Assembly (NCBI RefSeq): GCF_003018235.1
Contig: NZ_CP027437.1
Reading direction: 5' to 3' (one strand)
DNA length: 64,000 nt
Source of the DNA: Escherichia coli
Lineage (GTDB): Bacteria > Pseudomonadota > Gammaproteobacteria > Enterobacterales > Enterobacteriaceae
The notes beneath the pieces were generated by a model. That model saw only the letters and a list, made by a program, of their open reading frames with translations. It searched no databases and had not been told where the DNA came from. This document shows, piece by piece, positions 40,751-41,079 of the stretch; position 1 is the stretch's first letter, and each line of letters starts with the position of its first letter. Made by a program: the position numbers and the translations under genes.

Positions 40751-40776
40751 AGTGTCAGGAGATTAATATCAATAAA

Positions 40777-40805
40777 ATTACTCTCGTTAACGTGGCGAGA
40801 GTAAT
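40777..40805 (-). terminator. Second hairpin downstream of pheV, with T-tract on the minus strand
   Basis: attactctcg / cgagagtaat inverted repeat (40777-40786, 40796-40805), followed on the minus strand by tttattgat. Confidence 0.45.
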
Positions 40806-40861
40806 TCCCCCAGACTTTATAAGCTAATTTTTTTCGTGAAGGTTATTGTCAGATCCAAAAG

Positions 40862-40890
40862 CAAAAACCCGCCTTGTGGGCGGGTTCTTA
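40862..40890 (-). terminator. Rho-independent terminator of pheV
   Basis: Read on the minus strand directly 3' of the tRNA: gaacccgcc-caca-aggcgggtt followed by tttttgc. Confidence 0.8.
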
Positions 40891-40898
40891 AGAATTAG

Positions 40899-40974
40899 TG
40901 GTGCCCGGACTCGGAATCGAACCAAGGACACGGGGATTTTCAATCCCCTGCTCTACCGACTGAGCTATCCGGGC
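40899..40974 (-). tRNA. pheV: tRNA-Phe (GAA anticodon)
   Basis: Reverse complement is GCCCGGATAGCTCAGTCGGTAGAGCAGGGGATTGAAAATCCCCGTGTCCTTGGTTCGATTCCGAGTCCGGGCACCA: 76 nt with cloverleaf, GAA anticodon and encoded CCA. Confidence 0.95.
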
Positions 40975-41079
40975 AACGGGGCGCATTAAACCTGATTCGC
41001 CTCGTCTCGTCAATCAAATTTCTTCAATTTACTGCAGACTGCACAATCTATCATCACTTTGCCGCTATTGCACGCATTG

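Follow-up and report, generated by a model that had tools for sequence, protein, structure and literature searches.

An unoccupied pheV attachment site beside an intact T2SS-beta operon in an Escherichia coli chromosome

Introduction

Among the systems closest to the locus described here is GI-pheV, an intP4-bearing island present in 52% of complete Escherichia coli genomes, whose attR repeats either 23 bp or 19 bp of the tRNA end (PMC11537424). In such islands intP4 directly follows the tRNA, the cargo measures 10–110 kb, and the last 23 nt of pheV serve as the attachment site for P4-type integrases. At a broader scale, the pheV hotspot has been defined as the whole interval bounded by the core genes speC and pitB, which is made up of strain-variable modules (Touchon et al. 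2009). The tRNA gene itself is best described from K-12, where it is monocistronic, remains functional when reduced to 58 nt of upstream and 61 nt of downstream sequence, and yields a precursor that is cleaved by RNase E 2–3 nt past the CCA (PMC8860583), with CCA+2 as the dominant pheV 3' end in Term-seq data (PMC7815308).

Here we analyzed pheV in a 64-kb stretch of E. coli DNA (hereafter "the window", meaning the whole stretch), and compared it with K-12, with strains that carry islands or capsule genes at this position, and with complete E. coli genomes. We conclude that the locus is very probably an ordinary, unoccupied chromosomal pheV in an E. coli strain that keeps an intact T2SS-beta operon, a reading for which we directly observed the anatomy and synteny of the locus, the presence of attB in a single copy, and the conservation of the first hairpin past the tRNA (hairpin 1).

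Anatomy of the pheV locus

The window holds a single tRNA gene, a tRNA-Phe(GAA) called by ARAGORN, whose cloverleaf matches Rfam RF00005 at 68.3 bits (E=5.6e-14, gathering score 29); besides this tRNA, an Rfam search between positions 39 and 43 kb at a permissive E-value returned sub-threshold noise only. On its 3' side, and convergent with it, lies gspM, named yghD (GspM family) in annotated syntenic E. coli chromosomes and ending in a TAA stop codon at 40748–40750, and the non-coding interval from gspM to yqgA spans exactly 40751–41079 (Table 1). In annotated E. coli chromosomes, a position adjoining yqgA and speC distinguishes pheV from pheU, and synteny placed the window's tRNA at just this position; as a tRNA-Phe between yghD and yqgA, it was therefore identified as pheV. 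The direct flanking by gspM and yqgA that had been proposed from the sequence was upheld by ARAGORN, Pfam and synteny, with gspM 148 bp from the tRNA. Together with 48 bp of upstream sequence, pheV also matches a second E. coli locus at 92.8%, which is probably pheU. Across the window, the gene order runs glc operon, sslE, pppA, gspS2, gspC–M, pheV, yqgA, speC, nupG, mltC, and mutY onwards.

Table 1. Features of the pheV locus, with positions numbered from the first letter of the window.
Feature	Position	Strand	Basis or remark
gspM / yghD, last gene of the T2SS-beta operon (sslE-pppA-gspS2-gspC..M)	40214–40750	+	Pfam T2SSM E=1e-43; synteny
100-bp segment holding hairpin 2	40751–40850		present only in E. 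coli genomes that have yghD immediately next to the pheV terminator
Hairpin 2, perfect 11-bp arms AATTACTCTCG / CGAGAGTAATT	40776–40786 / 40796–40806		9 nt between arms
Terminator 1 / hairpin 1 (hairpin 40862–40890)	40852–40890	-	terminator scan; fold
23-nt tRNA 3' end TTCGATTCCGAGTCCGGGCACCA	40899–40921	-	stretch duplicated as attL/attR around pheV islands
pheV, tRNA-Phe, anticodon GAA, encoded CCA end	40899–40974	-	ARAGORN; Rfam RF00005
Putative pheV promoter: -35 TTGACG (41013–41008), 17-nt spacer, -10 TTTAAT (40990–40985)	40978–41013	-	sequence inspection
yqgA, conserved DUF554 membrane protein, upstream of pheV on the same strand	41080–41787	-	Pfam DUF554 E=3.7e-67; synteny

Functionally, pheV would form a single-gene transcription unit on the minus strand, driven by its own putative promoter. 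The inferred hexamers of this promoter are accompanied by a GC-rich discriminator, GCGCCCC, at 40984–40978, and went uncalled in a consensus scan, the second base of the -10 hexamer being a T. Transcription would stop at hairpin 1, an intrinsic terminator beginning 9 nt past the CCA end, and the precursor would then be cut by RNase E 2–3 nt past the CCA and trimmed, as in the K-12 literature. An 8-mer direct repeat, ATTGTCAG, found at 40845 and 41076 and thus on both sides of the pheV unit, was dismissed as chance, since about one such pair is expected per 400 bp.

The attachment site and its occupancy

With up to 3 mismatches allowed, no second copy of the 23-nt pheV 3' end was found across the whole 64-kb window, and a blastn-short comparison of the whole tRNA against the window gave no other match covering its 3' part. 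A 14-mer search returned one match at 7561–7574 with 2 mismatches, which was rejected as chance level (0.31 such matches expected). For a P4-type integrase, a tblastn search of the window with the translated pheV-adjacent integrase of E. coli DETEC-P622 gave a best E-value of 3.5, no integrase is annotated in the collinear stretch of E. coli NY1601, and no IS element was found in the 64-kb window. The window aligns end to end with NY1601, from pitB to endA, with no gene-sized insertion, the sole gene-sized difference being an IS1397 element (IS3 family) that NY1601 carries between glcA and sslE and that the window lacks (23800–24300). A single intact tRNA 3' end marks an unoccupied attB and, with attB both intact and present in a single copy, there is therefore no island integrated or remaining. 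In relation to GI-pheV, the window has the same 23-nt target in intact form, but neither an intP4 directly after the tRNA, nor the 10–110 kb cargo, nor the 23-bp or 19-bp attR that usually closes such islands.

These results agree with the original prediction, which had seen neither an integrase at pheV (tblastn best E=3.5; none annotated in the NY1601 stretch) nor a direct repeat of the tRNA 3' end (window-wide 23-mer, 14-mer and blastn-short searches). It had also proposed looking in the window for a duplicate of the attachment site, of which the 64 kb contain none, and comparing the locus with pheV-island strains, of which AR_0014 and DETEC-P622 show an attR that the window is without. The attR of AR_0014 reads TTCGATTCCGAGTCC-GGCACCA. 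In the occupied locus of DETEC-P622, the integrase begins 197 bp past pheV, and the far end of the ~76-kb island is a degenerate repeat, TTTCATTCCGATTCCGGGCACCA, followed by terminator 1; the repeats of the two strains match the two published attR types. As a side observation, at 4960–5000 of the DETEC-P622 locus, just past pheV, the island brings its own terminator-like hairpin, GGACCTCC AC GGAGGTCC, followed by TTTTTCGTTT; the original terminator 1 has been left ~76 kb away beside attR, and the island hairpin stands directly after the rebuilt tRNA 3' end.

At the population level, the uninterrupted yghD–pheV–yqgA junction is present in 1490 of 5426 complete E. coli genomes (27%), including K-12 derivatives. 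When 60 evenly spaced genomes were sampled for junction classes, 17 had the full junction, 10 had the spacer plus a 23-nt tRNA remnant, representing the far junction of an island, 20 had a match ending at the yghD stop codon, and 13 matched at the tRNA only. The original prediction had implied that it is surprising to find a classic island site empty, and here we disagree: the empty state is that of the K-12 reference and is common in the species, and for this reason it is unsurprising. An empty pheV site is already known, and the window adds nothing new in this respect.

The gspM–pheV spacer and the capsule locus

The gspM–pheV spacer is 148 bp long, the same length as in K-12, and differs from that of K-12 W3110 at one base; over the spacer, tRNA and promoter region together, W3110 shows 2 differences, the second lying ~85 nt upstream of the tRNA. 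K-12 (MG1655 and W3110) also shares with the window the order speC-yqgA-pheV-yghD, the strands, an identical tRNA, both hairpins and the lack of an island. It differs in having lost gspD–gspK, with a fused gspC/partial gspL remnant where the window has the full gspC to gspM, and in its yghD coding sequence, which is ~95–97% identical to the window's. Among 10 aligned E. coli sequences, the spacer is nearly invariant.

Beyond these sequences, the whole 148-bp spacer occurs in 2510 of 5426 genomes, and ~1500 more keep only 40851–40898, the part containing terminator 1. Two junctions illustrate what adjoins the spacer remnant and yghD in other strains. In DETEC-P622 the 40851–40898 piece sits beside attR and is followed by an IS110 fragment, kpsF, kpsE and kpsD, and in IHE3034 similarity to the window stops at the yghD stop codon, with kpsM, kpsT and neuB next. 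From these junctions, 40751–40850 can be identified as the kps-free allele of the capsule locus. The group 2 capsule (kps) genes take up the same interval, from pheV terminator 1 to the yghD stop codon, but in kps-positive strains 40751–40850, including hairpin 2, is replaced by kps. The empty pheV of the window thus denotes a strain without a pheV pathogenicity island and without the adjacent kps capsule locus; these absences fit a commensal or environmental E. coli in which the SslE/T2SS-beta system is still intact, and the intact attB could accept an island.

The gsp operon and the history of the junction

Most of the left 40 kb of the window belongs to the speC–pitB hotspot. Compositionally, G+C reaches 0.55–0.59 over gspE–gspL, versus ~0.51 in the flanks. 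The gspE–gspM part (33000–41000) is 94–98% identical to other E. coli, with flanks mostly at ~98–99.8%, and, owing to this divergence of gsp, no complete genome matches the central 22 kb above 98.3%. That low figure raised the possibility of a source other than E. coli, which was dismissed, since the flanks reach mostly ~98–99.8% identity to E. coli strains and only the polymorphic gsp genes fall short. On the other side of the tRNA, identity between the yqgA–pheV segment and strains with pheV islands reaches 99.3%; the closest relatives of the window therefore change across pheV. In light of this, the original statement that pheV is flanked by no foreign DNA is right as far as an integrated island is concerned, but too strong as worded, because pitB–pheV falls within a recognized variable hotspot (Touchon et al. 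2009).

That hotspot of strain-variable modules between speC and pitB (Touchon et al. 2009) is also where a different history of the site would begin. The sslE-pppA-gspS2-gspC..M block, and perhaps all of pitB–pheV, could be an ancient island that has lost its integrase and attR, in which case the site would be "occupied" in an evolutionary sense. The raised G+C of gspE–gspL (0.55–0.59 versus ~0.51 in the flanks), the internal deletion of the gsp operon in K-12, and the location of the block on the tRNA 3' side, where islands insert, are all consistent with such an origin, which we nevertheless hold to be unlikely: the 40 kb on the tRNA 3' side contain no integrase, IS element or tRNA-derived repeat, and island-bearing strains have terminator 1 and the full spacer between attR and yghD. 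Since terminator 1 and the spacer stay attached to yghD, current islands insert between pheV and the block, and the block behaves as backbone. Very improbable, in our estimation, is an island once present and then lost by precise integrase-mediated excision, with a clean attB restored and the empty state of today a secondary loss. The 19–23-bp repeats that flank pheV islands permit excision (PMC11537424), and the gsp-side flank, at 94–98% identity to other strains, has closest relatives that differ from segment to segment, so that the junction does have a recombination history. A precise event, however, is traceless and has no direct support in the sequence, and the spacer is near-identical to that of K-12 and of many other empty-site strains, for which the simplest reading is vertical inheritance of the empty site.

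Transcription termination around pheV

The core arms of hairpin 1, at 40863–40873 (AACCCGCC) and 40879–40889 (GGCGGGTT), enclose a 5-nt CACAA loop and are followed on the minus strand by the T-run TTTTTGCTTTTGG. It folds at -19.5 kcal/mol (z = -4.4) and is the only site in the spacer that passed the terminator scan, with 12 pairs (6 G-C), a loop of 5, the tail CTTTTGGATC, and TTTTT inside the end of the stem. Judged by these features, it is a canonical predicted intrinsic terminator for pheV, and it resembles the terminators of monocistronic E. coli tRNA genes in its GC-rich stem, its short loop, the U-tract after the tRNA and its removal by RNase E. Evolutionarily, this hairpin extends well beyond the species. 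A scan of species-representative genomes, anchored on the tRNA end plus hairpin 1 and requiring an exact hairpin match, so that it speaks to breadth and not to universality, returned 18 loci, all in other genera and none in Escherichia. Hairpin 1 follows tRNA-Phe or remnants of it in Citrobacter, Enterobacter, Klebsiella, Kosakonia, Phytobacter, Lelliottia, Pluralibacter, Superficieibacter, Erwinia, Leminorella and Limnobaculum, that is, in at least 11 other enterobacterial genera, with similarity ending directly past the T-run. Within E. coli, both hairpins are near-invariant in 10 sequences, with only two single-base variants. One of these, a C-to-T change in the hairpin 1 stem of DETEC-S792, still pairs on the minus strand, as G-U, but leaves an A-C mismatch on the plus strand, and this minus-strand-only pairing fits hairpin 1 as the pheV terminator.

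In K-12, the Term-seq tables (PMC7815308) list a Rho-dependent region whose best coordinate is CCA+45, equivalent to window position ~40854 and just past the hairpin 1 T-run; coverage over the 800 nt past CCA+45 is ~1% of that upstream, and the region is flagged Rho-sensitive. According to the same entries, the downstream/upstream coverage is 50/4606 without bicyclomycin and 293/3667 with it, and read-through beyond terminator 1 rises 7.4-fold upon Rho inhibition. Taken from these tables, the K-12 figures indicate that ~1% of the coverage lies past hairpin 1 and that Rho handles at least part of this read-through. Separately, the tables place an "orphan" pheV-strand 3' end some 1 kb beyond pheV, at MG1655 3111489 (PMC7815308), which corresponds, by offset only, to window position ~39851, antisense to gspL, and may represent the end of read-through antisense transcripts.

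Hairpin 2, which the original prediction had drawn at 40777–40805, without its outer pair, begins 25 nt past the gspM stop codon, 92 nt past the tRNA and 56 nt beyond hairpin 1. Folded on the minus strand, it forms 11–13 pairs around a 9-nt loop, with TTATTGATATT following; on the plus strand it has a 14-bp stem that includes two G-U pairs, a 3-nt loop and, after the stem, CCCCCAGAC (CCCCC) with no U-tract, the T-rich tail being confined to the minus strand. The fold reaches ~-16 kcal/mol on either strand, with z = -3.6 (minus) and -5.6 (plus). Perfect hairpins with arms of at least 11 bp number 4 in the window, against 0.14 expected from shuffles, and neither hairpin 1 nor hairpin 2 is a chance feature. 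The terminator scan left hairpin 2 uncalled. The "tandem terminators" of the original prediction can thus be kept in part: hairpin 1 is a textbook case by the scan, while hairpin 2 resembles a terminator on the pheV strand by virtue of its T-rich tail alone, and as a putative second pheV terminator it is unproven.

For comparison, rrnB T1-T2 are tandem terminators, and hairpin 2, at its distance past hairpin 1, resembles such an arrangement; it differs by an AT-rich stem, a 9-nt loop on the pheV strand, and the lack of a mapped 3' end in two of the three K-12 Term-seq conditions. In these two conditions, no pheV-strand 3' end is mapped between 3110443 and 3111489, to ~1 kb past CCA+2, and no entry carries the label yghD (PMC7815308). 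The gsp strand is silent in K-12. The supplements of the TERMITe Term-seq paper have no entries for pheV, yghD or yqgA.

Hairpin 2 is a conserved stem-loop within the 100-bp spacer that separates two convergent transcription units. Most likely it provides a weak back-up stop for transcripts running on from the strong tRNA promoter, a role favored by the fact that its T-run lies on the pheV strand. Additionally or alternatively, it may supply the gsp operon mRNA with its 3' stem-loop; the two roles are roughly comparable in standing and not mutually exclusive. Were hairpin 2 a stem-loop closing the plus-strand T2SS-beta (gsp) transcript at its 3' end, serving as an mRNA stabilizer or as a terminator without a U-tract, the two hairpins would not be in tandem but would serve two convergent units, which we consider possible, if on balance somewhat doubtful. 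Its start 25 nt past the gspM stop codon points in this direction, as does the fold, with 14 pairs, a 3-nt loop and z = -5.6 on the plus strand versus 11–13 pairs, a 9-nt loop and z = -3.6 on the minus strand, the two G-U pairs being possible on the plus strand alone. The second of the single-base variants, in JE86-ST05, retains pairing on the plus strand only, where it forms G-U, the minus-strand counterpart being an A-C mismatch, although the strand argument here depends on this single variant. Hairpin 2, unlike hairpin 1, is absent after tRNA-Phe in other genera, a pheV clone that ends 61 nt past the CCA, and thus is without hairpin 2, is fully functional (PMC8860583), and two of the three K-12 Term-seq conditions place no pheV-sense 3' end there (PMC7815308). 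Against a gsp role, CCCCCAGAC and not a U-tract follows the stem on the plus strand, the T-run being on the minus side, and kps-positive strains keep yghD without hairpin 2, from which it follows that the gsp operon does not need it.

A combined role is also conceivable, in which hairpin 2 and its 100-bp segment would make up a dedicated, strand-asymmetric insulator separating the very strong pheV promoter from the T2SS-beta operon that converges on it; this we judge to be quite unlikely. If it were true, the minus-strand T-run would stop tRNA read-through while the G-U-extended stem on the plus strand would cap the gsp mRNA, and replacement by kps would alter the shielding of the secretion operon from antisense transcription.

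Other features of the window

The remaining perfect hairpins with arms of at least 11 bp lie at 44325–44356, 52795–52825 and 55955–55980. That at 44325–44356 (AAAAACGGGTC..GACCCGTTTTT) is located between the convergent genes speC and nupG and has A-runs and T-runs on both sides, like a bidirectional terminator.

At 52800–55700, between yggM and hemW, a block of low G+C (0.39–0.47) encodes a three-gene TRAP transporter on the minus strand, consisting of a large permease, a small permease and a substrate-binding protein. Of 5426 E. coli genomes, 1461 carry these 3.1 kb over their full length, the best match being 99.6% identical, and K-12 is not known to have genes at this position.

By the annotation of NY1601, the stretch at 3800–12850 encodes an LPS-biosynthesis protein, a hypothetical protein, a YtfJ-family protein, LptF and LptG paralogues, a serine palmitoyltransferase (spt), an acyl carrier protein, an NAD-dependent epimerase/dehydratase and a fatty acyl-AMP ligase, followed by yghO, and resembles a module for lipid synthesis and export within the pitB–pheV hotspot. 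Finally, ~166 bp between yggR and ruvX (60286–60452) were left unaligned by megablast to VCSW7 or NY1601, with flanks at 98–99%, and are a short variable intergenic segment.
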